Source of the DNA: Alphaproteobacteria bacterium
GTDB lineage: Bacteria; Pseudomonadota; Alphaproteobacteria; JAJFFI01
Reading direction: 5' to 3'
DNA: 64,000 nucleotides
NCBI GenBank assembly: GCA_030066595.1
Contig: JASJBI010000023.1
Coordinates: 85,717 to 149,716, forward strand
This document shows positions 7,462 to 47,871 of the stretch, one piece after another. The notes beneath the pieces were generated by a model that worked only from the letters and a program-made list of their open reading frames with translations, ran no database searches and was not told where the DNA came from. The translations under genes and the position numbers were made by a program. The first letter of the stretch is position 1. The number at the start of each line of letters is the position of its first letter.

Positions 7462-7956
7462 ATGTACGCGGTCCGCCTCTGGTCGGTGCGCCACGCCAAG
7501 GGGCTGAACCGCCTCTATCACGCATTCGAGTGGGTGATCCGCCGGCTGCACCCCCTGTGCGCGCGGATCGGCTATGACCGGCTCGAGCGCCCGGTGGCGG
7601 CGGTCGAGAAACCGATCAAGGAATTCCTGTTCGACTGTCGCATGTGCGGCCAGTGCGTTCTGTCCGAGACCGGCATGTCCTGCCCGATGAACTGTCCCAA
7701 GGCGCTGCGCAACGGGCCCTGCGGCGGGGTGCGGGCGGATGGCGGCTGCGAGGTCGAGCCCGAGATGCGCTGCGTCTGGGTCGCCGCCTGGGAGGGCGCC
7801 CAGCGCATGGGCACGGAGCCGACCCTGGCGCTGCAGGCGCCCGTAGACCACAGCCTGCTCGGCCGCTCCTCCTGGCTGCGCGTGGTCCGCGCGCTCGGCC
7901 AAGAGGCCCAGCCTGTGGCGGACGAAGGCCGCAAGGGGGCGACGGTGCCGCGATGA
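7462..7956 (+). CDS. MTHFR C-terminal-domain (MetV-like) Cys-rich protein
   Basis: Cys cluster CRMCGQCVLSETGMSCPMNCPKALRNGPCGG; SD GAGGGAG 10 nt upstream; ATGA stop/start overlap with the downstream metF-like gene. Confidence 0.6.
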   Translation: MYAVRLWSVRHAKGLNRLYHAFEWVIRRLHPLCARIGYDRLERPVAAVEKPIKEFLFDCRMCGQCVLSETGMSCPMNCPKALRNGPCGGVRADGGCEVEPEMRCVWVAAWEGAQRMGTEPTLALQAPVDHSLLGRSSWLRVVRALGQEAQPVADEGRKGATVPR

Positions 7957-9047
7957 GCCAGGACGAAGGCGAGGTCCGCGAAGATCTGTTCGGCTATGCC
8001 AGTCCCGGCCCGCCGCCGCCCGGCTATTCCTCGCACGGATGGCTCGAGCATCTCTTGCGCAGCGGCGTGTTCGCGGTGACCGCGGAGCTCAACCCACCGG
8101 ACTCCGCCGATCCCTACGAGGTCTACGAGCGCGCCGCGGTCCTGGCCGAGGTGGTCGACGCGATCAACGCCACCGACGCCTCGGGCGCCAATGTGCACAT
8201 GTCCAGCGTCGGCATCTGCGCGCTCTTGACCCGGGACGATCTGGCGCCGGTGCTGCAGGTCTCCTGCCGGGACCGCAACCGCATCGCCATCCAGGGCGAC
8301 GTCCTTGGGGCCGCCGCCATGGGCGTATGCAACGTCTTGTGTCTGACCGGCGACGGGGTCGGCGTCGGCGACCAGCCCGAGGCCAAGCCGGTCTTCGATC
8401 TCGACTGCATGTCGCTCTTGAGCACGATCCGGATGATGCGGGACGAGGGCCGGTTTCTCTCCGGCCGGCCGCTCACCGAGCCGCCCAAGGTGTTCCTCGG
8501 CGCGGCCGCCAACCCGTTCGTGCCGCCCTACGACTTCCGCCCGCTCCGGCTGGCCAAGAAGATCGAGGCGGGCGCCCAGTTCGTGCAGACCAACTATTGC
8601 TTCGACCTGCCGATCCTCAAGGACTACATGGCCCGGGTGCGGGACCTGGGCCTCGACGAGACCTGCTTCATCCTGGTCGGCGTGGGGCCGCTGGCGAGCG
8701 CCCGCGCGGCCCGGTGGATCCGCTCCCGGGTGCCCGGCATCCACATCCCGGACGCGGTGGTCGAGCGGCTCGAACGCGCCGGCGACCCGCGCCTCGAGGG
8801 CAAGAAGCTCTGCATCGAGCTGATCCAGGAGATCCGCGAGATGCCGGGCGTGGCCGGCGTGCACATCATGGCCTACCGCCAGGAGGAGATGGTGGCCGAC
8901 ATCGTCGCCGAGTCGGGCGTGCTGGAAGGCCGCACCGAGGCGCAGATCGGGCTCGCCGGGCTCAGGCGGCAGCAGGCCCGCAAGCGCCGGACGATGCTGG
9001 AGATTCTCGGGCGCAGATTCCGTCGGACAGAAGACCGGGATAGCTGA
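7953..9047 (+). CDS. metF: 5,10-methylenetetrahydrofolate reductase (MetF family)
   Basis: ORF 7644..9047 trimmed to MSQDEGEV (atg 7953-7955); MetF-family TIM-barrel pattern (AVTAELNPP..., QFVQTNYCFD..., HIMAYRQEEM). Confidence 0.8.
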   Translation: MSQDEGEVREDLFGYASPGPPPPGYSSHGWLEHLLRSGVFAVTAELNPPDSADPYEVYERAAVLAEVVDAINATDASGANVHMSSVGICALLTRDDLAPVLQVSCRDRNRIAIQGDVLGAAAMGVCNVLCLTGDGVGVGDQPEAKPVFDLDCMSLLSTIRMMRDEGRFLSGRPLTEPPKVFLGAAANPFVPPYDFRPLRLAKKIEAGAQFVQTNYCFDLPILKDYMARVRDLGLDETCFILVGVGPLASARAARWIRSRVPGIHIPDAVVERLERAGDPRLEGKKLCIELIQEIREMPGVAGVHIMAYRQEEMVADIVAESGVLEGRTEAQIGLAGLRRQQARKRRTMLEILGRRFRRTEDRDS

Positions 9048-10016
9048 TCACGCCGGGACGCGGCGCTCCTCGCGCGGGGTGCGGCCGAAGTGCTCGCGGT
9101 AGCATTTCGAGAAGTGAGAGGCCGAGACGAAGCCGCAGGCCACCGCTACGCTGAGCACGGAAAGCGACGTCTGCATAAGGAGTTGCCGGGCGTGATTGAG
9201 ACGCAACTCCAAGTAATAGCGGGTCGGCGTGCGATGCAGGTATTTCTGAAACAGGCGCTCGAGCTGGCGCGTCGAGAGATCGACCTGCTGGGCCAGCGCG
9301 CGCTGGCTGAGCGGCTGCTCGATGTTCTGCTCCATGAGCCCGATCACCTCCAAGAGCTTGGGGTGGGCGATGCCGAGCCGCTGGCGCAGGTTCATGCGCT
9401 GGTGGTCGTGCTGGTCGCGCATGCGCTGGTAGATGAGCTCGTCGGAGACCGCGGCAGCCAGCTCGTAACCGTTCTGCACGGCGATCATCTTGAGCATCAA
9501 GTCGAGCGCCGCCGTGCCCCCCGAGCAGGTGAACCGGTTGCGGTCGATCTCGAAGATGTCCGAGGTGACGTCCAGATGGGGAAACTCCTCGGCAAAGCCG
9601 GGCAGGTTCTCCCAGTGGATGGTGCAGCGATAGCCGTCCAAAAGCCCGGCCCGGGCCAACAGATGGCTCGCCGTGCAGAGCGCGCCGATGTCGGCGCCGC
9701 GCGCCGCCAGGCGACGCAGCCAGGCGAACAGCTTGGCATCCTCCTGGCCCTGGACGTCGATGCCGCTGCACACCGCCACCGTGGGCACGAAGTCCACATT
9801 GCCCACCGCCTCGTCGGCGACCACGTCGACATGGCAGGAGGCGGTGACCGGCAGGCCGTCCATGGACAGCACCTGCCACTCGTAGAGCGGCTTGCCGCTG
9901 ACCCAGTTGGCCAGGCGCAACGGCTCCACCGCCGCCGTAAAGGCGGACATGGAGAATTTCGGCACCAGCACAAAGGCGATGCTCTCCGTCTTGTGGCTCT
10001 TCGTCGCCCCGAACAT
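9048..10016 (-). CDS. AraC-family transcriptional regulator with DJ-1/PfpI-like N-domain (GlxA-type)
   Basis: N-terminal DJ-1/PfpI-like region (GALCTASHLLARAGLLDGYRCTIHW) and C-terminal AraC HTH (...SVLSVAVACGFVSASHFSKCYREHFGRTP). Confidence 0.85.
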   Translation of the reverse strand: MFGATKSHKTESIAFVLVPKFSMSAFTAAVEPLRLANWVSGKPLYEWQVLSMDGLPVTASCHVDVVADEAVGNVDFVPTVAVCSGIDVQGQEDAKLFAWLRRLAARGADIGALCTASHLLARAGLLDGYRCTIHWENLPGFAEEFPHLDVTSDIFEIDRNRFTCSGGTAALDLMLKMIAVQNGYELAAAVSDELIYQRMRDQHDHQRMNLRQRLGIAHPKLLEVIGLMEQNIEQPLSQRALAQQVDLSTRQLERLFQKYLHRTPTRYYLELRLNHARQLLMQTSLSVLSVAVACGFVSASHFSKCYREHFGRTPREERRVPA

Positions 10017-14716: not shown

Positions 14717-17152
14717 CTAAGCCCTCAGCCGTTCGTTCTCCGGGTCGAACGGGGACTCCGGGATCACCGTGGCGCGGTGGCGGTCGCCCAGGATCTCGAT
14801 CTCGAGATCGGTGCCAAGCTCGGCCAGCTCCGGCCGCACCATGCCCAGCGCCAGGCTCTTGCCCAGCCGCCAGCCGTAGTTGCCGCTGGTGGCGCGGCCG
14901 ACCAGGGTGCCGTTCTGGTAGATCGGCTCGTTGCCGCGGGCGTCCACGTCGCCGACGTCGTGCACCTCGAGCGTGACGAATGCATTTTGGAAGCCCCGCT
15001 GCTGCCACTCGACCAGGGCGTCGCGGCCGATGAACTGCTCCTTGTTCAGGCGCACGAACCGGTTCAGGCCGGATTCCAGCGCCGCGTACTCGATCGAGAG
15101 CTCCCGCGGGATCAGCCGGTAGGACTTCTCGACGCGCAGGCTGTCCATGGCGCGGATGCCGAAGGGTTGCAGATCGAATTCCGCGCCCGCGTCGAACAGG
15201 AGGTCGTAGATGTAGTTCTGCATCTCGATCGGATGATGCAGCTCCCAGCCCAGCTCGCCGACGAAATTGACGCGCAGCGCGTGGGCCTGGGCGCAGCCCA
15301 CATTGACGAACTGGCCCGAGAGCCACGGGAAGGTCTCGGTCGAGAGGTCCGTGTCCGTGACCTTCTGCAAGAGATCCCGTGAATGCGGCCCGGCCACGAC
15401 CAGCACGCCGTACTGGCTCGTCACCTTCTGCAGCCGGACGCTGCCGTCCGGGGGCAAGAGCTTGGTCAGATAGTCGTCGTCGTGCCGCTCCATGGCGCCG
15501 GCCGAGACCAGGTAGAACCGGTCCGGGGCCTGGCGGTAGATGGTGAACTCCGAACGCACGCCGCCGTTGCCCGACAACATGTGGCAGAGGCCGATGCGCC
15601 CGACCGTCTGGGGCAGCCGGTTGGCCACGAGCCCGTCGAGCCAGGCCTCGGCCCCCGGCCCGCTCACCTGGAACTTGGAGAAGGCGGACATGTCCAGGAG
15701 CCCGACCTTCTCGTGCACGTGCCGGCACTCGTTGCCGACATGCTCGAAATAGTTGGTGCGGCGGAAGGACCAGACATCCTTGGGCTCGACGCCTTCGGGC
15801 GCGAACCAGTTGGGGCGCTCCCAGCCGTACACCTGGCCGAACACGGCGCCGCGCGCCTTCATGCGGTCGTAGCAGGGGGTCTGCTTCAAGGGGCGCGCGG
15901 CCGGGCGCTCCTCGTCCGGGAAGTGGATGGTGAAGACGTTCGCATACGCCTCCTCGTTCTTCTCCTTGAGGTAGCCGCGCGAGGCATAGGGGCCGAACCG
16001 CCGCGGGTCGACGCCCATCATGTCGATGGTCGATTCACCCTCGACGATCCACTCGGCGAGCTGCCAGCCCGCACCGCCCGCCGCCGTGATGCCGAAGCTG
16101 TGGCCCTCGTTGAGCCAGAAGTTGGGCAGATCCCAGGCCGGGCCGATGATCGGCGAGCCGTCCGGCGTGTAGCAGATGGCGCCGTTGTAGACCTCCTTGA
16201 CGCCGACCTCGCCGAAGGCCGGCACCCGGAAGATCGCCGACTCGATATGCGGCTCCAGCCGGTCGAGATCCTCCTGGAACAGCTCGTATTCGGCGTTTTC
16301 GCTGGGGCCGTCCACATAGCAGCAGGGCGCGCCGATCTCGTAGGGGCCGAGCAAGAGGCCGCCGGCCTCCTCGCGCATGTACCAGGACGCGTTCGAGTCC
16401 CTGAGCACGCCCATCTCCGCCAAGCCCTGCTCGTGCCGGGCCTGGATCTCGGGGTGGGGCTCGGTGACGATGAACTGGTGCTCGACCGGGATCACCGGGA
16501 TCTCGAGCCCGACCATGGCGCCGGTCTGGCGGCAGAAGTTGCCGCTGGCCGAGACCACGTGCTCGCAGGTGATGTCGCCCTTGTCCGTCTGAACCCGCCA
16601 TTCGCCCGCGGCCGTGCGCTCGATACCGGTCACCGTGGTCTGGCGGTAGATCTCGGCGCCGCCGGTCCGCGCGCCTTTGGCCAATGCCTGGGTCAGATCG
16701 GCGGGCTGGATGTAGCCGTCCTCGGGATGCTGGATCGCGCCGATCAGCCCCTCGGTGTTGCAGAGCGGCCAGATCTCCTTGACCTGTTCGGGGGTGAGAT
16801 GGCGCACGTCGACGCCGATCGTCTTGGCCACGCCGACATAGTAGTTGTACTCGTCCATGCGCTCCGGGGACGAGGCGAGGCGGATGTTCGAGACCCGGCG
16901 CAGGCCCACGTCCTGGCCGGTCTCCTCCTCGAGCTTCCCGTAGAGCGCCACCGAGTATTTGTGGATCTGGCCGACGCTGTAGCTCATGTTGAAGAGCGGC
17001 AGGAGCCCGGCCGCATGCCAGGTGGAGCCCGAGGTGAGCTCCTTGCGCTCGACCAGCACCACGTCCGACCAGCCCTTCTTGACGAGGTGATAGAGCGTCG
17101 ACACGCCGACGACGCCGCCGCCGATCACCACCACGCGCGCGTGTGATTTCAT
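14717..17152 (-). CDS. dimethylglycine/sarcosine dehydrogenase-family oxidoreductase (FAD-dependent oxidase domain + GcvT-type folate-binding C-domain)
   Basis: 811 aa; N-terminal dinucleotide fold VVVIGGGVVGVSTLYHL, C-terminal aminomethyltransferase-fold region; length matches dimethylglycine dehydrogenase. Confidence 0.85.
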   Translation of the reverse strand: MKSHARVVVIGGGVVGVSTLYHLVKKGWSDVVLVERKELTSGSTWHAAGLLPLFNMSYSVGQIHKYSVALYGKLEEETGQDVGLRRVSNIRLASSPERMDEYNYYVGVAKTIGVDVRHLTPEQVKEIWPLCNTEGLIGAIQHPEDGYIQPADLTQALAKGARTGGAEIYRQTTVTGIERTAAGEWRVQTDKGDITCEHVVSASGNFCRQTGAMVGLEIPVIPVEHQFIVTEPHPEIQARHEQGLAEMGVLRDSNASWYMREEAGGLLLGPYEIGAPCCYVDGPSENAEYELFQEDLDRLEPHIESAIFRVPAFGEVGVKEVYNGAICYTPDGSPIIGPAWDLPNFWLNEGHSFGITAAGGAGWQLAEWIVEGESTIDMMGVDPRRFGPYASRGYLKEKNEEAYANVFTIHFPDEERPAARPLKQTPCYDRMKARGAVFGQVYGWERPNWFAPEGVEPKDVWSFRRTNYFEHVGNECRHVHEKVGLLDMSAFSKFQVSGPGAEAWLDGLVANRLPQTVGRIGLCHMLSGNGGVRSEFTIYRQAPDRFYLVSAGAMERHDDDYLTKLLPPDGSVRLQKVTSQYGVLVVAGPHSRDLLQKVTDTDLSTETFPWLSGQFVNVGCAQAHALRVNFVGELGWELHHPIEMQNYIYDLLFDAGAEFDLQPFGIRAMDSLRVEKSYRLIPRELSIEYAALESGLNRFVRLNKEQFIGRDALVEWQQRGFQNAFVTLEVHDVGDVDARGNEPIYQNGTLVGRATSGNYGWRLGKSLALGMVRPELAELGTDLEIEILGDRHRATVIPESPFDPENERLRA

Positions 17153-17289
17153 GGCTTCCTCCGCTCGGGCAAACGCCCTGCCCCGGCCGCCGACGGCCGA
17201 GTACGTTCGCTCTCCCTAAACCACCCCGGGCGTAGGCAAGCGCTGTTTTGCGACACCCGTCATTGCGAATGCGACAGCATGCGGGCTAC

Positions 17290-17334
17290 CGCGGGGTCTA
17301 GGCGAACTCATAGACCATTTCCTCGACCTGCCGC
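17290..17334. repeat. 45-bp imperfect direct repeat, copy A (intergenic, upstream of acyl-CoA synthetase)
   Basis: 40/45 identical to 20969..21013 in the same orientation. Confidence 0.7.
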
Positions 17335-17394
17335 CATGGTCCGGGGAATGGCGCGGGTGGTCGCGGAGCGACCCCGGAGCCGACCGGCCACATC

Positions 17395-19047
17395 TTGCAG
17401 ACCGTGGACCCTCCGAGCATGATGGCGGGCCGGCCCGACAGAGTTTCCCAACGGGCCGAACCCAAGGACCAGAGCCGGCCGATGGCCCCATTGCTCCATC
17501 TGGGACAGACACTCCAGGCGCACGCCCATGTGACGCCGGAGCGGACGGGCGCGGCCGATCTCGAGCGCAGCATGACCTTCCGGCAATGGAATGCGAGGGC
17601 CTGCCGGCTGGCGAACGCGCTCCTGGGCCTGGGGTTGAGCAAGGGTGATCGGGTTGCCGTGCTCGCCTACAACCGCATCGAATGGCTTGAGATCTACGCC
17701 GCCGTGGCCAAGGCGGGCCTGATCGCGGTGCCGGTCAACTTCCGGCTCGTCGCGCCTGAGATCCGATTCATCGTCGAGAACTGCGAGGCGCGGGCGCTGA
17801 TCGTCGAGGACGCGCTTTTGGGCGCCGTCGAGGAGACTCGCCACGATCTACCGATCGACCGGGGCGCCTTCGTTCATCTCGGCAAGAGCGCCGCGCCGGC
17901 CGGCTACGTGGCCTACGAAGACCTCATCGCTGCCGCTGCCGGGGACGAGCCCGATGCCCGAGTCGCGCCCGGGGACACCTGGTCCCTGATGTACACGTCC
18001 GGCACGACCGGCAATCCCAAGGGCGCGATCCGGAGCCACGGCGCCGGCGCGCTGCTGTCGCTGACGACGGAGGTCGAGCTCGGCTTCAGCGCCCGTGATA
18101 CGGGCCTTCTGGTCATGCCGATGTGCCACGCCAACTCGCTGAACTTCCTCGGCGCACTGACCTATTGTGGCGCGCCGGTGACGGTCTACAGCCGGCCACG
18201 TTTCGACCCGGAGCATCTCCTTCGCTCGCTCGCGAACGGCATCGCGACCTTCACGTCGCTGGTTCCGACGCACTACGTGATGATGCTGGGGCTTGGGCGA
18301 CAGCTTCTCGAGAGCCTCAATCCCGAGCGGATCACCAAGCTGATGATCTCTTCGGCGCCCGCCCGCCGAGACACCAAAGAGGCGATCCTCGGCTACTTTC
18401 GAAACTCGGGGCTCTGGGAGCTTTACGGCTCGACCGAACAGGGCTGGGCGACCATGTTGCAGCCCGAGGACCAGTTCAGAAAGCTCGGCTCGGTGGGACG
18501 GGAATGCATCGGCACGGCGCCGATCCGGCTGCTCGACGAGGAGGGCCGCGATGTGCCCCAAGGCCAGGTGGGCGAGCTCTACTCGGCGACGCCCTACGCC
18601 TTCGACGGGTACTGGAAGTTGCCGGACAAGACGGCAGAAGCCTTCCGCGGCGACCATCTTTCCGTTGGCGACCTCGCCTGGCGCGACGAGGACGGCTTCT
18701 ATTACCTGGTCGACCGCAAGAGCAACATGATCATCTCGGGCGGCGAGAACGTCTACCCGTCCGAGGTGGAGAACGCGCTGGGCGCCCATGCGGCGGTCAA
18801 GGACGTGGCGGTGATCGGGGTGCCGGACGCCAAATGGGGCGAACGGGTGCATGGGGTTGTGGTGCTGCATGCCGGCGCCGAGGCGAGCGAGGCGGAACTC
18901 GTGGCCTGGTGCCGCGAGCGCCTCGCCGGGTACAAGCGGCCGCGCTCGATCGCGATGATCCCCGAGGCGGACATGCCGCGGACCAGCACCGGCAAGATCC
19001 TGCATCGGGCGCTGCGCGAGCGCTTTGCGGAGACGGACGAGGCCTGA
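17395..19047 (+). CDS. AMP-dependent acyl-CoA synthetase/ligase (FadD-like)
   Basis: ANL motifs YTSGTTGNPKG, GYGSTE, SGGENVYPSEVE, terminal lysine region; true start possibly Met30 (17482) or MTFRQW. Confidence 0.85.
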   Translation: MQTVDPPSMMAGRPDRVSQRAEPKDQSRPMAPLLHLGQTLQAHAHVTPERTGAADLERSMTFRQWNARACRLANALLGLGLSKGDRVAVLAYNRIEWLEIYAAVAKAGLIAVPVNFRLVAPEIRFIVENCEARALIVEDALLGAVEETRHDLPIDRGAFVHLGKSAAPAGYVAYEDLIAAAAGDEPDARVAPGDTWSLMYTSGTTGNPKGAIRSHGAGALLSLTTEVELGFSARDTGLLVMPMCHANSLNFLGALTYCGAPVTVYSRPRFDPEHLLRSLANGIATFTSLVPTHYVMMLGLGRQLLESLNPERITKLMISSAPARRDTKEAILGYFRNSGLWELYGSTEQGWATMLQPEDQFRKLGSVGRECIGTAPIRLLDEEGRDVPQGQVGELYSATPYAFDGYWKLPDKTAEAFRGDHLSVGDLAWRDEDGFYYLVDRKSNMIISGGENVYPSEVENALGAHAAVKDVAVIGVPDAKWGERVHGVVVLHAGAEASEAELVAWCRERLAGYKRPRSIAMIPEADMPRTSTGKILHRALRERFAETDEA

Positions 19048-19077
19048 CGGGACAGCATCCACCGGGAGAAACGAGCC

Positions 19078-20814
19078 ATGGCTAAAGCATCAGTCGCCGA
19101 CCTCGGCTCCGGGCCGGAAAGCTGCGCGGCACGCATCGCGCAGTTCCTGGAGCGGCGCGCCATCGACCGGATCTTTGGCCTGCAGGGCGGTCACATCCAG
19201 CCGGTCTGGGACTGGCTGCCCCGTCACGGCATCCGCATCGTCGATGTGCGCGACGAGGGCGCGGCGGTACATATGGCCCATGCCCATGCCGAGCTCACGG
19301 GCGGGCTGGGTGTCGCGATGGCGACCGCCGGCCCCGGCGTCACCAACTGCGTCACCGCGATCGCCAATGCCTCGCTGGCGCGCGCACCGGTGCTGCTGAT
19401 CGGCGGCTGTCCGCCCCGCCCGCAGGTCAACAAGGGACCGCTGCAAGACATTCCCCATGTCGACATCATGCGGCCGATCACCCGGACGTCCCGCACCCTT
19501 CGGGTCGCCGATCAGGTGCTGCGGGAACTCGACGAGGCCGTCTCGCGCGCGCACGGAGACGCGGCCGAGCCGGGGCCGGCGTACCTCGAGATTCCGACCG
19601 ATGTGCTGCGAGAAGAGGTTCCGGACGCCCAGGTGCTCGAGGATTGGCTCCGGCCCAAGCCGCCGCGACGGCTTCCGCCCGATCCGGAGGCGGTGGCACG
19701 GGCGGTCGAGGCGGTCTGGTCGGCGCGCCGCCCGGTGGTCGTGACCGGGCGCGGCGCACGGGGCGCGGGGCAAGCGCTGATGCGCCTGCTTGACGCGACC
19801 GGCGCCCTGTACCTGGACACACAGGAAAGCCGGGGCCTCGTCCCCTCGGACCATCCCGGCTTCGCCGGCGCCGTGCGCGGCAACGCCATGGCCGATGCGG
19901 ACCTGCTGCTGGTCGTCGGACGCAAGCTGGACTATCAGCTCGGCTACGGCTCGCCCGCGGTCTTTCCGAACGCGCGGATCGTGCGGATCGCCGACACGGC
20001 GGGCGAGCTGGTCGACAACCGGCGGGGCGATCCCGAGCTCCTCGCAACCCCGGCGCTCGCGCTCGAGGCGATGGTCGAGGCGGCGGGCAACCGTCCATCG
20101 GCCCTCGATGCCGACTGGGCCGACGGCCTGCGCGCCAAGCAGCGGGCGCGGGCGGCAGCGGGCCTCGGCGAGGTGCCGGATCTGTGCGAGGACGGCAAGA
20201 TTCACCCGCGCCGGATCTTTGACGCCATAGCCGACGTCGCCGACCCCGACTACATCGCCGTCGCAGACGGCGGCGACATCCTGAGCTTCGCCAGGGTCGG
20301 ACTCGCCGCGCGCACCTATATGGACGCGGGCGCCTTCGGCTGCCTCGGGGTCGGCGTGCCCTTCGCGATCGCCGCCGCCCTGGCCTTCCCGGAGCGGCAG
20401 GTGATCTCGGTCAACGGCGACGGCGCATACGGGATCAACGCGATGGAGATCGACACCGCCGTGCGCCACGGGGCCAAAGCGGTCTTCATCGTTTCCAACA
20501 ATGCCGCGTGGAACATCGAGCGCTACGACCAAGAGGCCAACTATGGCGGTCGGGTGGCGGGGACCACGCTGCGCCACTCGGACTACGCCGCCATGGCGGT
20601 CGCCCTGGGCGCCCATGGCGAGCGGGTGGAGACGCCGGACGGACTTGCGGGCGCGCTCGACCGTGCGCTCAAGAATGCGCCGGCGGTCGTCGACGTCGTC
20701 ACCTCGCAGGCGGCCGTGTCCTCCGATGCGATGAAGGGGCTCGGCTATGTTCCCGACTACCAGCCCCTGACCGGCTGGGACGAGGCGGAACGGCGCCGGC
20801 GGGAAGAGGCCTGA
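19078..20814 (+). CDS. thiamine-diphosphate-dependent enzyme (acetolactate synthase / oxalyl-CoA decarboxylase / 2-hydroxyacyl-CoA lyase family)
   Basis: 578 aa; N-terminal ThDP Pyr domain ([20 protein letters not shown]), central domain, C-terminal PP domain ([15 protein letters not shown]...[16 protein letters not shown]). Confidence 0.85.
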
Positions 20815-20880
20815 GGACAGCGACCCTCCGAGACGGGCTAGGATCGGGAGACAAACGAGGTTGCGGAGTTTGGTTGGGCG

Positions 20881-20929
20881 GTAGACCGTTCGGGTCTGCG
20901 ACCTAGCGGCGAACCCCCATTCGTGGGGG
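20881..20929. terminator. pair of hairpins between convergent genes (putative bidirectional terminator)
   Basis: GTAGACC-GTTCG-GGTCTGC and CCCCCA-TTCG-TGGGGG (GC stem with UUCG tetraloop); no strong U-tract. Confidence 0.35.
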
Positions 20930-20964
20930 AGCGGGCCGGTGATGCAATCAAATCCGAATATGAT

Positions 20965-21948
20965 CTAGCGCGAGGTGTAGGCGAACTCGTAGACGATCTC
21001 CTCGACCTGCCGCGTGGCCTGGGACTGGCCGCCCTGGGAGAGGACCGTGCTGCTGACCTTCTGCTGCTCGATGCGGTGCGGTAACAGGGTGTCCGGCTCG
21101 GTCACCAGCCGCACCGTGGTGTCGATCCTCAACTGCTCGATGTGGAACTCGCCGGCGCCCTGCCCGGCCATCCGCTTGAGGAAGGCCTCGAGCGCCCGGG
21201 CCACCTTGTCGGAATCGACAAAGCTGCGCAGTTCGAGATGCACGCAGCGATCCGCGCTGGCCGCCTTGCCACAGCTCACCGGCCCGAGATAGCGATAGGC
21301 CGCCTTCATCGGCACTTCCGTGTTGCCCAGCACGGGAACAGCCATGCTGAAGTCCTGCTCATAGGTTTCGCCGCGGTCGAATTCGCCGCCGACCCATGCG
21401 CCCACGTCCCGGTTCCAGCTCTCTGCCATGCGCGCCTCGAGCTGCCGGTCGGACATGGCGCCTTCGATCGTCTGCTGCACCCGCTCTTTCGCCTGATCCG
21501 GAAGATCGGCAAGCAGCGCGGCATAGGCCTCGCGCAGATTCTGACGATAGCGCTCCATGTTCTCGAGCCGGAGGTAGCTTCCCTGCCTGTCGATCACATA
21601 GCTGGGCCGTTGGTTCGCGGCGCTGAGCATGAACTGCTGCAGCCTGCCCTGCATGCCGGAAACCGGCGGCTCGACCTGCACGTCGACCTGCGTCTTGCCG
21701 AAGGTAATGAGCTGTCCGTCGGCGACCGGCTTGGCCGCGAATCCGTAGCCGCCACGCACGACAATCACCTGCTGGCCCCGCTCAGCGGCCCGGGTCTTGC
21801 GCGCAGAGAACGTGGCCGTGCCCTCGACAGTCTCAGGCCAGGCAAAGGCGAGCGTCACGGTGTCCGCCCGGACCGGCGCGAACGGGAGCAGCAAGAGGGA
21901 GATCAAGAAGCTGGCGAGCCGGCAGCGGCGGACGCATCGGTCGCGCAT
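20965..21948 (-). CDS. secreted hypothetical protein
   Basis: 327 aa, signal peptide LASFLISLLLLPFAPVRA; no recognisable domain. Its 3' end carries copy B of a 45-bp direct repeat. Confidence 0.6.
   Translation of the reverse strand: MRDRCVRRCRLASFLISLLLLPFAPVRADTVTLAFAWPETVEGTATFSARKTRAAERGQQVIVVRGGYGFAAKPVADGQLITFGKTQVDVQVEPPVSGMQGRLQQFMLSAANQRPSYVIDRQGSYLRLENMERYRQNLREAYAALLADLPDQAKERVQQTIEGAMSDRQLEARMAESWNRDVGAWVGGEFDRGETYEQDFSMAVPVLGNTEVPMKAAYRYLGPVSCGKAASADRCVHLELRSFVDSDKVARALEAFLKRMAGQGAGEFHIEQLRIDTTVRLVTEPDTLLPHRIEQQKVSSTVLSQGGQSQATRQVEEIVYEFAYTSR
20969..21013. repeat. 45-bp imperfect direct repeat, copy B (3' coding end of secreted-protein gene 20965..21948)
   Basis: Encodes ...RQVEEIVYEFAYTSR* on the minus strand; copy A encodes RQVEEMVYEFA* with only synonymous/conservative differences. 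Confidence 0.7.
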
Positions 21949-22056: not shown

Positions 22057-24111
22057 TCAAAACCCCTTGCAAAGCCTCAGGGAGTCGAAGATCGCGGCAT
22101 GGATGTTGCGCGAGGCGACGGCGTCGCCCACCCGGAACAGCTCGAAGCGCCCGTCCGGATTCGCGGTCTTGGCCTGCGGCCGGCCCGCGACCAGCGCCGC
22201 CAGGTCGGTCTCGCCTCGATTGAGAGACAGTGGCTTGAGGGCGAAGTAGAGATCGTCCAGCGGCAGCGTGCCCGCCTCCACCACCACTTGGTCCACCTCC
22301 CGCCTCTCTTCGGTCTCGGCATAGACGTTCACGAGCGTGGCGACCAGCCGGTTTCCGGCCCGCTCGATGCCGACCAGCCGGCGGTCGGGGCTCATGGCGA
22401 CGCCCGCGCGATAAAGCGCGCGCAGATGGACCGGGAAGTTGGTGGCGCCGGTCTCCTCCGCGATGGTGCGGTCGGGGGTGGCGATCTCCAGCTCGGCGGC
22501 CGTCGCCGCCAGGACCTCGGCACAGGACACGCCCTGATGCTGGCCGGTCTCGTCATAGAGCAGCACCCGGCCCGCGGGCCGGACCGCGCCGGAGAGGACA
22601 TCCCAGGAACTGACCGCGAGATCGGCGCGCGCGAACCGGCCCGGGTTGGGCGCGCCGCCGGTGGCGATCACGACCACGTCCGGCGCCCCGGCCAGCACGT
22701 GCTCCGCCTCGGCCAGCACGTTCAGGCGCACATCGACCCCCAGCTTGCGCACCTGGCCGTCGAGCCAGCCGACGACGTCGCCCAGGTCTCCGCGCCAGGT
22801 TGCCCGTGCGGCGATGTTGACCTGGCCGCCGGTGCGATCCGCCGCCTCGAACAGGACCACGTCATGCCCCCGCAGGGCCGAGACCCGCGCCGCCTCGAGC
22901 CCGGCCGGGCCCGCGCCCACCACCACGACCTTGCGGCCGGGCCGGTCCGCGCGCGGCACCACATGGGGCATCGCGGCCTCCCGCCCGGTCGCCGGATTGT
23001 GCAGGCAGAGCGCCTCGCCGCCGACATAGATCCGGTCCAGGCAGTAGGTGGCGCCCACACACGGACGAATGTCTTCGGCCCGGCCCTCGGCCAGCTTGCG
23101 CATGATGTGCGGGTCGGCGAGATGCGCCCGGGTCATCGCCACCATGTCCACATGGCCGCCCTGGATCGCCTGCGCGGCGCTGTCCGGGTCCTTGATGTTG
23201 GTGGCGTGGAAGACCGGCAGCCCGGTCATCGCCTTCACCGCGCTGGCATAGTTGAGATAGGGCGAGAGCGGCGAGCCCATCGGCGGGATGAACTTGGCGA
23301 GCCCGGCATGGTCGCGGATCTGGCCCGCGTTGACATTGAGGAAGTCGAGCATGCCCGTGGCCGCGTAGCGGTCGACGATGGCCATGCCGTCCTCCTGGCT
23401 GAGCCCGCCCTTGATCAACTCGTCGACGACCAGGCGGATGCCGACGATGAAGTCGTCGCCGACGGCCCGGCGCACGGCTTCCAGTGCCTCGAGGCCGAAG
23501 CGCATGCGGTTCTCCAGGCCGCCGCCATAGGGGTCGGAGCGCCAGTTCACGGCGGGCGTCCAGAATTGATCGATCAGGTGGCCGGTGGCCAAGAGCTCGA
23601 CCCCGTCGAGCCCGCCCTCCTTGCAGCGCCGCGCCGCGGCGCCAAAGGCCGCGACAACCCGGCGGATGTCCTCGGGCTCCATCGCCTTGGCGACCGCGCG
23701 ATGGGCCGGCTCGCGCGCCGCCGAAGGTCCGATCACCGGCAGCCAGTGGTCGTAGCTCCAATGGGTGCGAAAGCCCATATGGGTGATCTGGCACATCAGC
23801 GCCGCGCCGTGCCGGTGGATGCGCGCGGCGAAGTCCTGAAAATGCGGGATGACCCGGTCGTCCGAGACGTCGAGCTGGCCGAAGGCGGGCGGCGAGTCCA
23901 GATCGACCACCGAGGAGCCGCCGAACATGGTCAGCGCCAGACCGCCCTTGGCCTTCTCCTCGTGATAGAGCTGATAGCGCGCCCGGGGCAGGCCGTCCTC
24001 GGCATAGGCCGGGGAATGGCTGGTGCTCATCACCCGGTTCCTGAGCTTCAGATGCTTGAGCCGGAACGGCTCGAACAGCGGTGCGTAGCGCACCTCCGGC
24101 TGGCCGGTCAT
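22057..24111 (-). CDS. NADH:flavin oxidoreductase (OYE-type FMN domain + Cys cluster + FAD/NAD(P)-binding domain; DgcA/StcD/TMADH/FadH-like)
   Basis: 684 aa; OYE barrel N-domain, Cys cluster CVGATYC...C, C-terminal Rossmann VVVVGAGPAGLEAA. This architecture is shared by N-methyl amine demethylases and 2,4-dienoyl-CoA reductase. Confidence 0.85.
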   Translation of the reverse strand: MTGQPEVRYAPLFEPFRLKHLKLRNRVMSTSHSPAYAEDGLPRARYQLYHEEKAKGGLALTMFGGSSVVDLDSPPAFGQLDVSDDRVIPHFQDFAARIHRHGAALMCQITHMGFRTHWSYDHWLPVIGPSAAREPAHRAVAKAMEPEDIRRVVAAFGAAARRCKEGGLDGVELLATGHLIDQFWTPAVNWRSDPYGGGLENRMRFGLEALEAVRRAVGDDFIVGIRLVVDELIKGGLSQEDGMAIVDRYAATGMLDFLNVNAGQIRDHAGLAKFIPPMGSPLSPYLNYASAVKAMTGLPVFHATNIKDPDSAAQAIQGGHVDMVAMTRAHLADPHIMRKLAEGRAEDIRPCVGATYCLDRIYVGGEALCLHNPATGREAAMPHVVPRADRPGRKVVVVGAGPAGLEAARVSALRGHDVVLFEAADRTGGQVNIAARATWRGDLGDVVGWLDGQVRKLGVDVRLNVLAEAEHVLAGAPDVVVIATGGAPNPGRFARADLAVSSWDVLSGAVRPAGRVLLYDETGQHQGVSCAEVLAATAAELEIATPDRTIAEETGATNFPVHLRALYRAGVAMSPDRRLVGIERAGNRLVATLVNVYAETEERREVDQVVVEAGTLPLDDLYFALKPLSLNRGETDLAALVAGRPQAKTANPDGRFELFRVGDAVASRNIHAAIFDSLRLCKGF

Positions 24112-26132: not shown

Positions 26133-26243
26133 TATTGGAAGTCGGCCGAAACACAATCGCCCCACCCCGGCCTATCTAACTTGCGCCTCGGCGGGCCCGG
26201 CAGCGGGCGCCGGCAACCCAGACATGCGAAGGAGCGTTGGGTA

Positions 26244-27635
26244 ATGGCAGAGCAGGTGGCCACCTCAGGCAATGGCGCGGGGCAGGGTGCGCCCGGCGTC
26301 GGACACAAGGCGAACGGCGGCGGCCATGCCGCGGTCCGCCAGATCACCTCGGTCGATCAGGGCGACCGGATCGTCCCCATCAATCTTAGGCAGAGCGGGC
26401 CGACGCCGGTCCAGATGCTGATCTCCACCCGCGTCCGGAAGAACGCCTACTGGCACCTATCGCACCAGGCGGGCTGTTGGCGGGCCACGGTGTACAACCG
26501 CATGTACCACCCGCGCGGCTACGTCCGTCCCGAGGACGGCGGCGCCATGGTCGAATACGACGCCATCGTCAACCACGTCACCATGTGGAACGTGGCCGTC
26601 GAGCGCCAGATCCAGGTCAAGGGCCCCGATGCCGAGGCCTTCGTCAACTACGTGATCACCCGCGACGCCACCCGCATCGAGCCGATGCACGGCAAATACG
26701 TGATCCTGTGCAACGAGAAGGGCGGGATCCTGAATGACCCGGTGCTGCTGCGACTGGCCGAGGACGAGTTCTGGTTCTCGCTGTCGGACTCGGACATCCT
26801 GTTCTGGCTCCAGGGCGTCAATGTCGGCAGGAAGTTCAACGTCGAGATCAGCGAGATCGACGTCTCGCCGGTGCAGATCCAGGGGCCCAAGTCCGAGGCC
26901 TTGATGGCGGATCTGGTCGGCGACGGCATCCGCGACATGCCCTATTACGGCCTGTTGGAGGCCAAGGTCGGCGGCCGCGACTGCGTCATCTCCCAATCGG
27001 GCTTTTCCGGCGAGAAAGGCTACGAGATCTATCTGCGCGACTCGATGCTGTATGCCGAGGACATGTGGAACGCCGTGCTCGAGGCCGGCAAGAAGCACAG
27101 CCTCATGGTGATCGCCCCGGCGCACCACCGGCGCATCGCCGCGGGCATCCTGTCCTGGGGCCAGGATCTGGACCACGAGACCCTGCCCTTCCAGTGCAAT
27201 CTGAGCTACCAGGTCCCGCGCAAGAAGACCGCCGACTACATCGGCAAGGCGCGCCTGGAAGAGGTGCGCGCGCAGGTCGAGGCCGGCAACCCGCCTTATA
27301 AGAACACGCTCGTGGGCATTGCATTGGGCGGCAAGCCGATCGAGGACTACGCCCCCGATTTCTGGCTGATCTCGGGCGAGGACGGCGGCGCGCCGGTGGG
27401 CTACGTCACCTCGCCCTGGTACTCGCCCGAGCTCGAAACCAATATTGCCATGGGCTATGTGCCGTGGGAGATGCGCGATCTCGGCACGCGGCTCAAGATC
27501 TGGCTGCCGGACCAGTATGCCGAGACGCCGGGCGTGCCCGTGGACGGCCGGATCGTCGAGGTCCCGTTCCGCCCGTCGGTCAACCCGAACGCCCGCGAGA
27601 TCGCCAAATCCGAAGGCCGCGACGCGGCATTCTGA
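26244..27635 (+). CDS. aminomethyltransferase (GcvT/DmdA) family protein, probable THF-dependent demethylase
   Basis: ORF trimmed to MAEQVATS (atg 26244, SD AGGAG upstream); GcvT-fold pattern (YDAIVNHVTMWNVAVERQIQVKGPDAEAFVNYVITRD...); 463 aa with ~100-aa N-terminal extension relative to GcvT. Confidence 0.8.
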   Translation: MAEQVATSGNGAGQGAPGVGHKANGGGHAAVRQITSVDQGDRIVPINLRQSGPTPVQMLISTRVRKNAYWHLSHQAGCWRATVYNRMYHPRGYVRPEDGGAMVEYDAIVNHVTMWNVAVERQIQVKGPDAEAFVNYVITRDATRIEPMHGKYVILCNEKGGILNDPVLLRLAEDEFWFSLSDSDILFWLQGVNVGRKFNVEISEIDVSPVQIQGPKSEALMADLVGDGIRDMPYYGLLEAKVGGRDCVISQSGFSGEKGYEIYLRDSMLYAEDMWNAVLEAGKKHSLMVIAPAHHRRIAAGILSWGQDLDHETLPFQCNLSYQVPRKKTADYIGKARLEEVRAQVEAGNPPYKNTLVGIALGGKPIEDYAPDFWLISGEDGGAPVGYVTSPWYSPELETNIAMGYVPWEMRDLGTRLKIWLPDQYAETPGVPVDGRIVEVPFRPSVNPNAREIAKSEGRDAAF

Positions 27636-42148: not shown

Positions 42149-43804
42149 GTGAGGGGAGGCCTCGAGATGGCGACAGACCATGCATTGATGCAAGAGGAGA
42201 TGCGGGCCAAATCCGGCTGGCTCAAAGGGCTCAATCCGGAAGTGGCGCTGATCTCCAAATTCATCGTATTCGCCTTGGTTATCTTTGCGGCGATCTGGAC
42301 GAAGGAGGCGGGCGGCCTGTTCTCCGCCGTCAAGGATTGGATGGTGACCGGGCTGAAATGGTACTACATCGGCATTGTCGCCATCTTCCTGTTCTACTGC
42401 TTCTGGCTGCTGATCAGCCGCTACGGCAACATCCGCCTGGGCCGCGACGACGAGCGCCCGGAATTCAGCTATTTCTCCTGGTTCGCGATGCTGTTCGGGG
42501 CCGGCATGGGCATCGGACTGGTGTTCTGGAGCATCGCCGAGCCGATGTACCATTTCGACAGCAATCCGTTCATCGCGGAAGGCCAGTCCCAGACCGCCGA
42601 AGGCGCCAGGACGGCGATGCGGATCACCTTCTTCCACTGGGGCCTCCACCCCTGGGCGATCTACGTGATCGTGGCGCTGTCGCTGGCCTACTTCGCCTAT
42701 CGGCGCGGCCTGCCCCTGTCGATCCGATCGTCGTTGTATCCCTTGATCGGCGACCGGATTTACGGGCCGATCGGCCATGCTGCGGACATCCTGGCGATCT
42801 TCGGCACCGTGTTCGGCGTGGCGACCTCGCTGGGCCTCGGCGTGCAGCAGATGGCCACCGGCCTGTATGAGCTCACCGGCGCCGAGATGTTCATTCAGCT
42901 CGACGCCGAGGGCAACCAGGCGCCCAACACCGCCGCGATGCTGGTGCTGATCGCGATCATCTCGGCCATCGCCACGGTCTCGGTGGTCTCGGGCGTGGGC
43001 AAGGGCATCCGCATCCTGAGCGAGCTCAATCTCTGGCTCTCCATCTCGATCCTGGTGTTCCTACTGGTCTTCGGGCCGACGCTGTTCCTGCTGGAATCCC
43101 TGCTGCAGGCGACTGGCGACTACCTGCAGCACGTCATCCCGCTGAGTTTCTGGACGGCGGCCAACATCGAGACGCCGTGGCAGGGCTGGTGGACCGCGTT
43201 CTACTGGGGCTGGTGGATCTCCTGGGCCCCCTTCGTGGGCATGTTCATCGCCCGCATCTCCCGCGGCCGGACCATCCGCGAATTCGTGCTGGGGGTCCTG
43301 CTGGTGCCCACGCTGCTGGCCTTCGTCTGGCTGACGCTGTTCGGCGGCACCGCGCTCCACATCGAGCTGTTCGGAGACGGCGGCATCGTCGAGGCGGTGA
43401 AGAAGGACGTGACCGTCGCCCTCTACACCACGTTCGCAAAGATGGACGTGGGCTTCGTCGGCACCCTGTTCTCGGCCGTGGCGACCTTGCTGATCGCCAC
43501 CTACTTCATCACCTCGTCCGATTCCGGCACGCTGGTGGTGAATACGTTGATGTCGGCCGGCGATCCGAATCCGCCCACGGTGCACCGGGTGATCTGGGGC
43601 CTCGGTGAAGGTGCCGTGGCCGCCGTGCTGTTGGTGGCGGGCGGGCTGTCGGCGCTGCAGACCGCCTCGATCACCGGCGCCCTGCCCTTCTCGGTGATCA
43701 TGATCTTCATGTGCATCGGGCTGACCAAGGCGTTGAGCGAAGAGCAGGTCGGGCCGCAGTTCGCGCCGGCGGCCAGTGGCGGCGGCGCGCCTGCCGGCGA
43801 ATAG
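42149..43804 (+). CDS. BCCT-family (betaine/carnitine/choline) transporter
   Basis: 551 aa, 12 TM, BCCT signature-like Trp-rich segment (WTAFYWGWWISWAPFVGMFIARIS); possible start MATDHAL at 42167. Confidence 0.85.
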   Translation: MRGGLEMATDHALMQEEMRAKSGWLKGLNPEVALISKFIVFALVIFAAIWTKEAGGLFSAVKDWMVTGLKWYYIGIVAIFLFYCFWLLISRYGNIRLGRDDERPEFSYFSWFAMLFGAGMGIGLVFWSIAEPMYHFDSNPFIAEGQSQTAEGARTAMRITFFHWGLHPWAIYVIVALSLAYFAYRRGLPLSIRSSLYPLIGDRIYGPIGHAADILAIFGTVFGVATSLGLGVQQMATGLYELTGAEMFIQLDAEGNQAPNTAAMLVLIAIISAIATVSVVSGVGKGIRILSELNLWLSISILVFLLVFGPTLFLLESLLQATGDYLQHVIPLSFWTAANIETPWQGWWTAFYWGWWISWAPFVGMFIARISRGRTIREFVLGVLLVPTLLAFVWLTLFGGTALHIELFGDGGIVEAVKKDVTVALYTTFAKMDVGFVGTLFSAVATLLIATYFITSSDSGTLVVNTLMSAGDPNPPTVHRVIWGLGEGAVAAVLLVAGGLSALQTASITGALPFSVIMIFMCIGLTKALSEEQVGPQFAPAASGGGAPAGE

Positions 43805-46316: not shown

Positions 46317-47804
46317 ATGAATCCGGCCGATATCCTTGCCGAGCACGCGCGCACCAGACCCGACCACCCGGCCATCGAGGACGGCGACCGGATCGTCAAT
46401 TACGGTGAATTGAACGACCGCGTCGCAAGCGCGGCCGCCAACCTGCAACGCGCCGGGATCGAGCCCGGAGACATCGTCGGCATCATGCTGCCGGACTCGG
46501 CCGACTACCTGATCACGCTTTGCGCCGTGGCGAATGCCGGCGCGGTTACCTTCGCGATCGATCCCCAGCTACCGCCCAGGGAGAAGGAGTGCAGCCTGGT
46601 TGACGTGCCCGTGAAGGCGATCATCGCGCAGGCGGATGCGCAACCCGTGCCCAATGTCACCCGTCTTCCGCTCGACCGGGTGGTGCGGCCGCAAGCGGAG
46701 AACCCAGAGCCATTCGTCGCGCCGAACCTCCAGCCAGACCATCCGCATACCTTCGTCCAAACGTCAGGCACAACCGGCAATCCAAAGCGGCTCCTCTTGA
46801 GCCATGCCCAAAGAGCCGACTTCATAGAGCGCAACATGCGTACGGAAGGTTGGGTTTCGACCGACCGGTACCTGGCCGTCGTGCAGATGACATTCAGCAT
46901 CGGACGCGTGAGCTGTATCGGCATGCTCCATATCGGTGCAACGGTGGTCATCAACTCTGCAACCTCCGCCGCAGAGTTGGTCTCCCGGGTACAAGATCAG
47001 CGGATCACGATCCTACGCCTGACATCCGCCCATCTGCGCGGACTGCTCGACCACGCCGCTCACCGTTCTGCGGATGACCTGCCCCTGTTCCCGAACCTGC
47101 GTATGCTGGCCGTGACCGCGGCGCCGACCGCGCACGAACTGCGTCTGCTCGTGCGAACATCTCTAACACCGAATTTGCTCGAGCGATACGGAACCAACGA
47201 AATCGGGGTTGTCGCGGTGTCGGCACCCCCCGACCAGGACGCTTACCCGGACTCGCTTGGGCGCGTGATCGACGGTATCCAAGCGCAGGTCGTGGATGCC
47301 AACGACCAGCCCTTGCCCTCGGGCCAGGCCGGCTTGATTGGATTTCGCGGACCGAGATTGCCAACCGAGTATTATCGAAATGCGGAAGCGACCGCCCAGT
47401 GTTTTCGAGATGGCTGGTTCTATCCCGGCGATCTGGCCGCCTTGAACGAAGACGGCTACGTGTTCTTCAAGGGTCGGGCGGATGACGTCATCAACAACCA
47501 AGGCGCCAAGTTCTATCCCGTCGAAATCGAGACCGTTCTGTTGTCGCATCCGGCCGTGACGGAGGCGGCGGTCTTCGGCTGGCCGCATAAGCAGTTTGGA
47601 GAGTGCGCAGTGGCCGTCGTCGTAGCCAAGGCGCAGATCACGGCTGAGGCGCTGGCCCAGTTCTGCCGGGAACGTATTGCCGCATACAAGGTGCCGGTCT
47701 GGATCATGTTTGTGTCGGCGATGCCCAAGAACCCGATGGGCAAGATCGTCAAGGCCCGGCTCAGAGAGATGTTCCGAGGGCAAACGGCCCGGCAGTCGGA
47801 ATGA
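46317..47804 (+). CDS. adenylate-forming (ANL) acyl-CoA ligase, paralog 1 of 3
   Basis: TSGTTGNPK, GWFYPGDLAAL, DGYVFFKGRADD, AYKVPVWIMFVSAMPKNPMGKIVK; 495 aa. Confidence 0.85.
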   Translation: MNPADILAEHARTRPDHPAIEDGDRIVNYGELNDRVASAAANLQRAGIEPGDIVGIMLPDSADYLITLCAVANAGAVTFAIDPQLPPREKECSLVDVPVKAIIAQADAQPVPNVTRLPLDRVVRPQAENPEPFVAPNLQPDHPHTFVQTSGTTGNPKRLLLSHAQRADFIERNMRTEGWVSTDRYLAVVQMTFSIGRVSCIGMLHIGATVVINSATSAAELVSRVQDQRITILRLTSAHLRGLLDHAAHRSADDLPLFPNLRMLAVTAAPTAHELRLLVRTSLTPNLLERYGTNEIGVVAVSAPPDQDAYPDSLGRVIDGIQAQVVDANDQPLPSGQAGLIGFRGPRLPTEYYRNAEATAQCFRDGWFYPGDLAALNEDGYVFFKGRADDVINNQGAKFYPVEIETVLLSHPAVTEAAVFGWPHKQFGECAVAVVVAKAQITAEALAQFCRERIAAYKVPVWIMFVSAMPKNPMGKIVKARLREMFRGQTARQSE

Positions 47805-47871
47805 GCCCGGTAGAACCAGCCCGGCGCAAGCGGCCTGGCCCGGCTCAAGCGACGATCACGGATCCCCTGCA

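Follow-up and report, generated by a model that had tools for sequence, protein, structure and literature searches.

What leaves two copies of the end of one gene on either side of a pair of metabolic genes? The question is raised by a locus in the window, by which we mean the whole stretch of 64,000 nucleotides (nt) analysed here, taken from an alphaproteobacterial metagenome contig (JASJBI010000023.1, positions 85,717 to 149,716). In this locus, the last 49 nt of a gene encoding a secreted protein of 327 amino acids (aa) occur twice, once as the working end of that gene and once 3.7 kb away, and between the two copies lie genes for an acyl-CoA ligase and a thiamine diphosphate (ThDP)-dependent 2-hydroxyacyl-CoA lyase. 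An earlier note, made from the sequence alone, had suggested that this cassette was inserted into, or duplicated from, the 3′ end of the secreted-protein gene. A related organism carries the same neighbourhood with a single gene end and no cassette, and we consider it likely that the repeat pair is the scar of a single insertion. This confidence covers the scar, not the choice between import of one gene end together with the cassette and copying of the gene end in place.

Results

Extent and reading frame of the repeat

A repeat search aligned copy A (17286..17334, minus strand) with copy B (20965..21013, minus strand) as a direct repeat of 49 nt with 43 identical positions (88%) and a spacing of 3,679 nt. 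The 45-nt core recognised in the earlier note (17290-17334 against 20969-21013) was recovered exactly as counted there, with 40/45 matches (88.9%, E = 3.8e-8; blastn-short with a 701-nt query against the window). The full repeat, however, is 4 nt longer and includes the stop codon, and copy B comprises the last 15 codons plus TAG of the secreted-protein gene rather than the last 11 codons plus stop. In the 9 kb around the locus, the remaining direct repeats show 65-80% identity over about 30 nt; the match between copies A and B is far beyond chance. Its ends are sharp: 14/40 positions match just beyond the stop codon and 10/40 on the upstream side (chance expectation about 11/40), and no homology beyond the 49 nt was detected on either side of the copies. 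The outer limit of the repeat is exactly the last base of the stop codon.

Read on the minus strand, copy B translates as RQVEEIVYEFAYTSR followed by the stop, the true end of the open reading frame (ORF) 20965..21948 and its working tail; the C-terminus of this ORF reads ...ATRQVEEIVYEFAYTSR before the stop. In the same register, the translation of copy A is RQVEEMVYEFA*TPR*; the internal TAG lies at 17298-17300 and the former terminal TAG at 17286-17288, and the terminal TAG codons of the two copies align. The six differences, given as A/B, are GAA/GAG, ATG/ATC, TAT/TAC, TAG/TAC, CCG/TCG and CGG/CGC. They are scattered over the block, the longest identical run (15 nt) lying at the cassette-proximal end, and five of them fall on third codon positions (P = 0.018 against a uniform expectation). 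The codon changes agree with the description in the earlier note, including the TAC-to-TAG change in copy A, and its view of copy A as a formerly coding remnant is borne out by the common register, by the aligned stops and by the downstream sequence, which matches the spacer of the empty site described below. Copy A is the displaced, dead 3′ tail of the 327-aa gene.

An ORF of 114 codons that ends in copy A (17298..17642) was rejected as a gene. It overlaps the 5′ region of the ligase gene on the opposite strand, shows no similarity to the 327-aa protein outside copy A, and should not be called a gene in annotation. A possible third, degraded copy of the tail in the 150-nt flank next to copy B (CTAGCG..GCGAAC at 20903) was also discarded, as 249/500 and 301/500 shuffled sequences matched equally well.

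A related organism with the empty site

In the window, the 327-aa gene lies downstream of an old-yellow-enzyme/FadH-type flavoprotein gene (22057..24111, minus strand), a neighbour that is syntenic in occupied and empty sites. On the far side of the cassette lies a dimethylglycine-dehydrogenase-like gene (14717..17152, minus strand; 811 aa, DAO and GcvT domains), the original downstream neighbour of the 327-aa gene. Proteins of the locus correspond to MDJ0949123, MDJ0949125 and MDJ0949126 on a 172-kb contig of an alphaproteobacterial metagenome-assembled genome, which is either the source of the window or has these proteins in identical form. Two metagenome contigs from one population of a related organism (L002 and L003) carry the flavoprotein gene, the 327-aa gene, 130 nt and the dehydrogenase gene in this order on one strand, with a single tail and with neither ligase nor lyase. 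Identity to the window is 70% for the 327-aa protein, 82% for the flavoprotein and 86% over 440 aa for the dehydrogenase (both at the amino acid level). A third case of the empty site probably lies on another contig, of 7,551 nt. The synteny comparison proposed in the earlier note therefore finds the pair missing between the dehydrogenase-like and secreted-protein genes, which supports insertion of the cassette into the 3′ end of the latter.

The polarity of the event can be read from the spacer. The 133 nt that follow copy A (17153..17285, minus strand), between the tail and the dehydrogenase gene, align with the L002 spacer at 82/137 identical positions, with a local score of 41 compared with 20.7 ± 3.6 for shuffled sequences, none of which (0/500) reached the score. 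The 150 nt beyond copy B gave no significant match to the same spacer (83/500 shuffles reached the score). Since the spacer matches the copy A side and not the copy B side, copy A and the sequence downstream of it are the old gene end with the contiguous ancestral spacer; taken together with the empty site, the same asymmetry shows that copy B and the sequence upstream of it are the rest of the old gene, and that 17335-20964 is new.

An independent metagenome scaffold (L001; 99.82% DNA identity, 99% for the relative of the 327-aa protein) has the same structure with both copies. The same repeat pair with no insertion or deletion of the cassette, which the earlier note had named as the outcome that would speak for a conserved regulatory motif, was not seen outside near-identical relatives (L001). 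Other candidate outgroups were of no use: the closest dehydrogenase relative beyond the clade (83%, L045) has different neighbours, and the distant homologues of the 327-aa protein, whose neighbourhoods are unrelated, are uninformative on the site.

Within the ancestral spacer, upstream of the dehydrogenase-like gene, lies a direct TGTCGCA-N14-TGTCGCA pair (17249-17276, minus strand) that recurs nowhere else in the window and is also conserved in the spacer of L002; it is a possible operator. The window also encodes, at 9048-10016, a regulator of the AraC type that carries a DJ-1/PfpI domain, the architecture of GbdR.

Junctions and search for mobile-element functions

Homology to L041, a short contig with the ligase-lyase pair in an unrelated context, starts at window position 17330-17335, which is the repeat boundary. 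Read from the alignments, the left junction (17330..17334) is GCCGC, or GCGGC on the coding strand. Here 4-5 nt of GC-rich microhomology are shared between the gene tail (GCGGC) and the native upstream sequence of L041 (CGGC).

A scan of 38 predicted proteins from the 64 kb, and of the genes annotated in L001, revealed no integrase, transposase or phage domain; no terminal inverted repeats were found at the insert, and the spacers and flanks gave neither an Rfam match nor significant RNA structure. No copy of the 49-mer lies beside the cassette in any of the four other loci that carry it (L041-L044). A transposon or insertion sequence (IS) was rejected as the source because of the missing transposase and terminal inverted repeats and because the repeat is 49 nt long and imperfect. 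An integron gene cassette was likewise rejected: there is no integrase and no Rfam-matched or structured flanking element, and the insert consists of two genes together with an upstream control block of their own.

Exactly abutting the stop of the 327-aa gene, the right-hand junction carries an imperfect, AT-rich palindrome, ATCATATTCGGATTTGAT (minus, or coding, strand; 20946-20964), in which 14/18 positions are self-complementary; the region is otherwise 68% GC.

The inserted segment and its other occurrences

The inserted segment spans 3,630 nt (17335..20964; its genes are on the plus strand) and is missing from L002 and L003. As first noted, the copies bracket exactly the ligase gene and the ThDP-enzyme gene. 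The acyl-CoA ligase (17482..19047, plus strand) is an AMP-forming, FadD-like protein of 521 aa; its gene probably starts at 17482, a start set by homology to 521-aa relatives, and the frame from an upstream ATG is closed by a stop in L041. Its best NCBIfam match (NF004837) scores 427, below the cut-off of 476, and its best matches in the PDB are FadD5 and FadD13. For the second gene (19078..20814, plus strand; 578 aa), the original description as a ThDP lyase/decarboxylase is narrowed here to 2-hydroxyacyl-CoA lyase. This protein matches NF058623 with 1024 bits (cut-off 600) and the actinobacterial 2-hydroxyacyl-CoA lyase of PDB entry 7pt1 with 726 bits over residues 16-577.

The cassette has its own upstream region (17335..17481, plus strand), for which homologues were found only in L001 and L041. 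Within it, a non-coding block, TCTTGC(A/C)…GCATGAT(T/G)GCG (window 17392-17424), precedes the ligase start by about 60-90 nt in the window, L041, L042 and L044. In the window it contains TTGCAG (17395-17400) and CATGAT (17418-17423) at a spacing of 17 nt. The block is likely a promoter or operator of the module itself; a promoter and terminator scan returned no hits, the block falling below the sigma-70 threshold of that scan. On the other side of the genes, a right flank of 150 nt (20815..20964) separates the convergent lyase and 327-aa genes and contains two short GC hairpins (approximately 20881-20899 and 20914-20929), with an overall fold z-score of only -1.2.

The ligase-lyase pair occurs at 83-87% DNA identity in the other contexts of L041, L042, L043 and L044. 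The L041 contig matches window positions 17330-20810 at 87% DNA identity. In L042, a contig of 1.18 Mb, the pair is flanked by a sugar ABC transporter and a LysE gene, and in L043 and L044 it is followed by a convergent GST gene. A lyase of 98% identity is encoded on a further contig, of 17,277 nt.

Between the window and L001, 14 of the 37 differences cluster in about 570 nt (18744-19311) covering the 3′ end of the ligase gene and the 5′ end of the lyase gene, which resembles a short tract brought in by recombination from another cassette allele. Distant lyase homologues (48-67% identity) are encoded by large plasmids found in Cupriavidus, Azoarcus, Methylibium petroleiphilum PM1 and Mycobacterium sp. 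ELW1 (records NZ_AP025173.1, NZ_CP062805.1, NC_020548.1, NC_008826.1 and NZ_CP032156.1). As only these distant homologues, at no more than 67% identity, were on plasmids, plasmid carriage of the cassette was rejected. Elsewhere in the window, two tandem AMP-binding, acyl-CoA ligase-like paralogues (47677-49356 and 49484-50950, plus strand) share near-identical peptide stretches; they are unrelated to the ligase locus of the cassette.

The target gene and its product

The target of the insertion (20965..21948, minus strand) is intact and encodes 327 aa with a signal peptide ending VRA|D. The protein has no match in Pfam or NCBIfam, and its family is rare, with 5 clusters among 5.8 billion proteins. 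Searches for further homologues led to 3 loci among species-representative genomes and 24 among JGI metagenomes, none above 43% identity and each in an unrelated context. The tail is kept in homologues with 26-43% identity, in which Q314 and Y324 are invariant. In an AlphaFold2 model (mean predicted local distance difference test score, pLDDT, of 84.5; predicted template-modelling score, pTM, of 0.80), residues 308-324 form the last long strand of an antiparallel sheet and include the duplicated tail. According to the model, the duplicated tail is thus the conserved terminal β-strand of the protein.

The model as a whole is a large curved antiparallel sheet with helices. Its fold matches are weak (template-modelling scores of 0.37-0.39) and comprise a type VI secretion cargo-complex protein and the lipid-binding sheets of vitellogenin, MTP and ApoB, from which we draw no functional conclusion.

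Age of the duplication

Over the 49 sites of the tail, copies A and B differ at 6, copy A and L002 at 11, and copy B and L002 at 12. As A and B are closest to each other, the duplication post-dates the split from the L002 lineage. Divergence at four-fold-degenerate sites between the window and L002 is 0.29-0.37; for A and B the divergence is 0.12, a value whose error over 49 sites is wide. The insertion event is neither very recent nor ancient. With L002 as the outgroup, 3 derived changes fall on copy B, which is under constraint, and 2-3 on copy A, which is supposedly neutral. Along the tail, L002 shares the state of A at sites 16, 19 and 46 and that of B at sites 25 and 37; at site 41 it matches neither copy. 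This is not a B-then-A mosaic and is thus unlike what would follow from loss of a cassette by a single crossover between the repeats.

Gene content of the surroundings

The neighbourhood is rich in genes for methylated-amine and one-carbon metabolism, among them the dimethylglycine-dehydrogenase-like gene, and contains several ABC transporters. Also in this group are genes for a GcvT-like protein (26181-27635, assigned through synteny with L001), for an MTHFR-like protein (7644-9047) and for a BCCT betaine/choline transporter (42149-43804).

Discussion

Based on the empty site and on the position of the two tails, we propose the following course of events. The ancestor would have carried the genes for the flavoprotein, the 327-aa secreted protein and the dimethylglycine-dehydrogenase-like protein in this order on one strand. 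A 3.63-kb segment comprising the control block, the ligase and the lyase would then have been joined in at a point 49 nt short of the end of the 327-aa gene, its genes facing the opposite way. The last 49 nt of the gene would thereby have come to lie on both sides of the insert, with copy B completing the gene and copy A left with the old spacer and the dehydrogenase gene, where, no longer translated, it would have gained its TAG. From the lack of mobile-element machinery and the 4-5 nt of microhomology at the ligase-side junction, we infer that the joining was illegitimate, independent of a recombinase and a one-off event. An insertion 49 nt from the end would otherwise remove the conserved final β-strand predicted for the protein. 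Because the tail is this strand, only an event that restored it could persist, and selection would explain why copy B is intact in the surviving allele.

Several observations weigh against an insertion scar of this kind or limit what can be built on it. The exact stop-codon boundary is a coincidence of about 1 in 100 that is predicted neither by copying of the tail in place nor by its import. A single empty-site lineage is available, it is fairly distant, and the inferences on polarity and outgroup states rest on few sites. The microhomology, short and GC-rich, is weak evidence, and it was judged on L041, which at 87% identity is only a proxy for the donor. For the 150-nt right flank, neither the window nor the fetched loci, save L001, contain a homologue. 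There is also no independent signal of foreign origin: the GC content at third codon positions (GC3) of the cassette (0.86-0.87) lies within the range of the window (0.76-0.95), and GC and GC skew are not distinctive either, so that the comparison of composition and codon usage suggested in the earlier note does not set the cassette apart from its flanks.

As to the source of the second tail, we slightly prefer import over copying in place. According to the import scenario, tail B came with the cassette from a related strain, through a homologous anchor on one side and one illegitimate joint on the other; we hold this tentatively, at not quite an even chance. Two results from small samples favour it, namely the concentration of the A/B differences on third codon positions and the finding that copy B has not acquired fewer derived changes than copy A. 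It needs, however, a donor in which the rare 327-aa gene already lay beside the cassette, and none was found. Copying in place, by which the cassette would have been caught at a break or by replication template switching in this lineage, is somewhat less probable but still quite possible. Here, synthesis would have left the gene at its stop codon, used 3.63 kb of foreign DNA as its template and returned to the gene at GCGGC, 49 nt upstream, so that A and B were identical at birth and all six differences arose later. This route takes a single event and no donor with the rare gene, microhomology is seen at its re-entry junction, and it agrees with the absence of a 327-aa homologue beside the ligase-lyase pair in every fetched locus. 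It fits poorly with the third-position bias of the differences, and with a copy A that was free to drift at 49 sites and yet shows only 2-3 derived changes compared with 3 in the constrained copy B; the exact stop-codon boundary remains a coincidence on this route as well.

The remaining explanations are considerably less probable. If the cassette and both tails predated the split from L002, and L002 and L003 had lost the cassette by recombination between the 49-nt repeats, the deletion would have left one tail and an intact spacer, as is seen in L002. We nevertheless consider this improbable, given that A and B differ from each other at about half as many sites as each does from L002 and that gene conversion between A and B would be required to explain tail states that form no B-then-A mosaic; even then, the repeat would still be an insertion scar, merely an older one. 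Site-specific integration, with the copies as attachment sites of a small non-autonomous element that supplied a replacement tail and relied on an integrase encoded elsewhere, is suggested by direct repeats that consist of a gene 3′ end and stop exactly where the gene stops, and by the near-palindrome abutting copy B. A boundary at the gene end is typical of the attachment sites of integrative elements. Yet neither the scanned genes of the 64 kb nor L001 encode an integrase or recombinase, the cassette lies in four other loci without an adjacent 49-mer, and so rare a gene is a poor target for a family of elements. Moreover, the six mismatches are spread over the block, and its longest identical run is at the cassette-proximal end. 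We therefore regard such integration as very unlikely. It is equally hard to credit that the copies are working attachment sites of a new type of integrase-less, promoter-bearing metabolic cassette mobilised in trans, although such a cassette with a replacement tail would, if real, explain the exact stop-codon boundary. That the copies are a conserved regulatory motif, or match by chance, and have nothing to do with an insertion has next to no probability: this reading has in its favour only that both copies lie near gene ends, and it is contradicted by an E value of about 4e-8, by the in-frame match with aligned stops, by a related genome with a single copy and no cassette, and by the lack of an Rfam match or significant structure.

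An insertion with one homologous and one illegitimate end has precedents. In homology-facilitated illegitimate recombination, described in bacteria capable of natural transformation, Acinetobacter and Streptococcus pneumoniae among them, foreign DNA is integrated through one homologous anchor and one microhomology joint. The present locus resembles these cases in the absence of mobile-element genes, in a short GC-rich microhomology at one junction as judged on the L041 proxy, in a foreign segment that would adjoin a stretch homologous between the parents, and in tail differences that look allelic and filtered by selection. It differs in its outcome, since the described cases mostly delete recipient DNA and the joint here, 49 nt inside the anchor, would have produced a duplication. 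The term homology-facilitated illegitimate recombination occurs in PMC6382021.

The resemblance to elements that integrate at gene 3′ ends is superficial. Islands, integrative conjugative elements and their integrase-less derivatives insert into the 3′ ends of genes, for example tRNA genes or fda of Streptococcus thermophilus, and supply a replacement end. As in such islands, the repeats consist of the 3′ end of the target, the gene is intact, the displaced tail lies at the far side and the repeat stops at the gene end. Unlike them, the insert contains only two metabolic genes, has no recombinase gene in or near it, lacks the repeat at its other locations and sits in a very rare target. Target-site duplications of insertion sequences and transposons, typically 2-14 bp long, share with this locus a direct repeat of target sequence around the insertion, but the repeat here is 49 bp long and imperfect and comes with neither terminal inverted repeats nor a transposase.

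A comparable gene pair is found in the lyase-ligase cluster for 2-hydroxyisobutyrate degradation of Actinomycetospora chiangmaiensis DSM 45062 (PMC7176365; structures in PMC8760513). There, too, a ThDP-dependent 2-hydroxyacyl-CoA lyase of the same family is encoded beside an acyl-CoA ligase gene, which in the cassette is co-oriented. In contrast, the ligase of the cassette is a FadD-like protein of 521 aa and not the 2-HIBA-CoA ligase of 465 aa, the mpdBC genes for diol oxidation are missing, and the host is an alphaproteobacterium. The 2-hydroxyacyl-CoA lyase family is of interest for synthetic one-carbon chemistry (PMC8760513, PMC11271303).

In summary, the locus is best read as an acquisition scar, a known phenomenon that is unusually clean here, and it opens no new question in biology. 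The ligase and 2-hydroxyacyl-CoA lyase genes travel as a self-contained unit among alphaproteobacteria. The locus provides a natural pair of an occupied and an empty site for a catabolic two-gene module that entered a chromosome without mobile-element machinery, and it illustrates how the survival of insertions is filtered by selection acting on the gene they hit.

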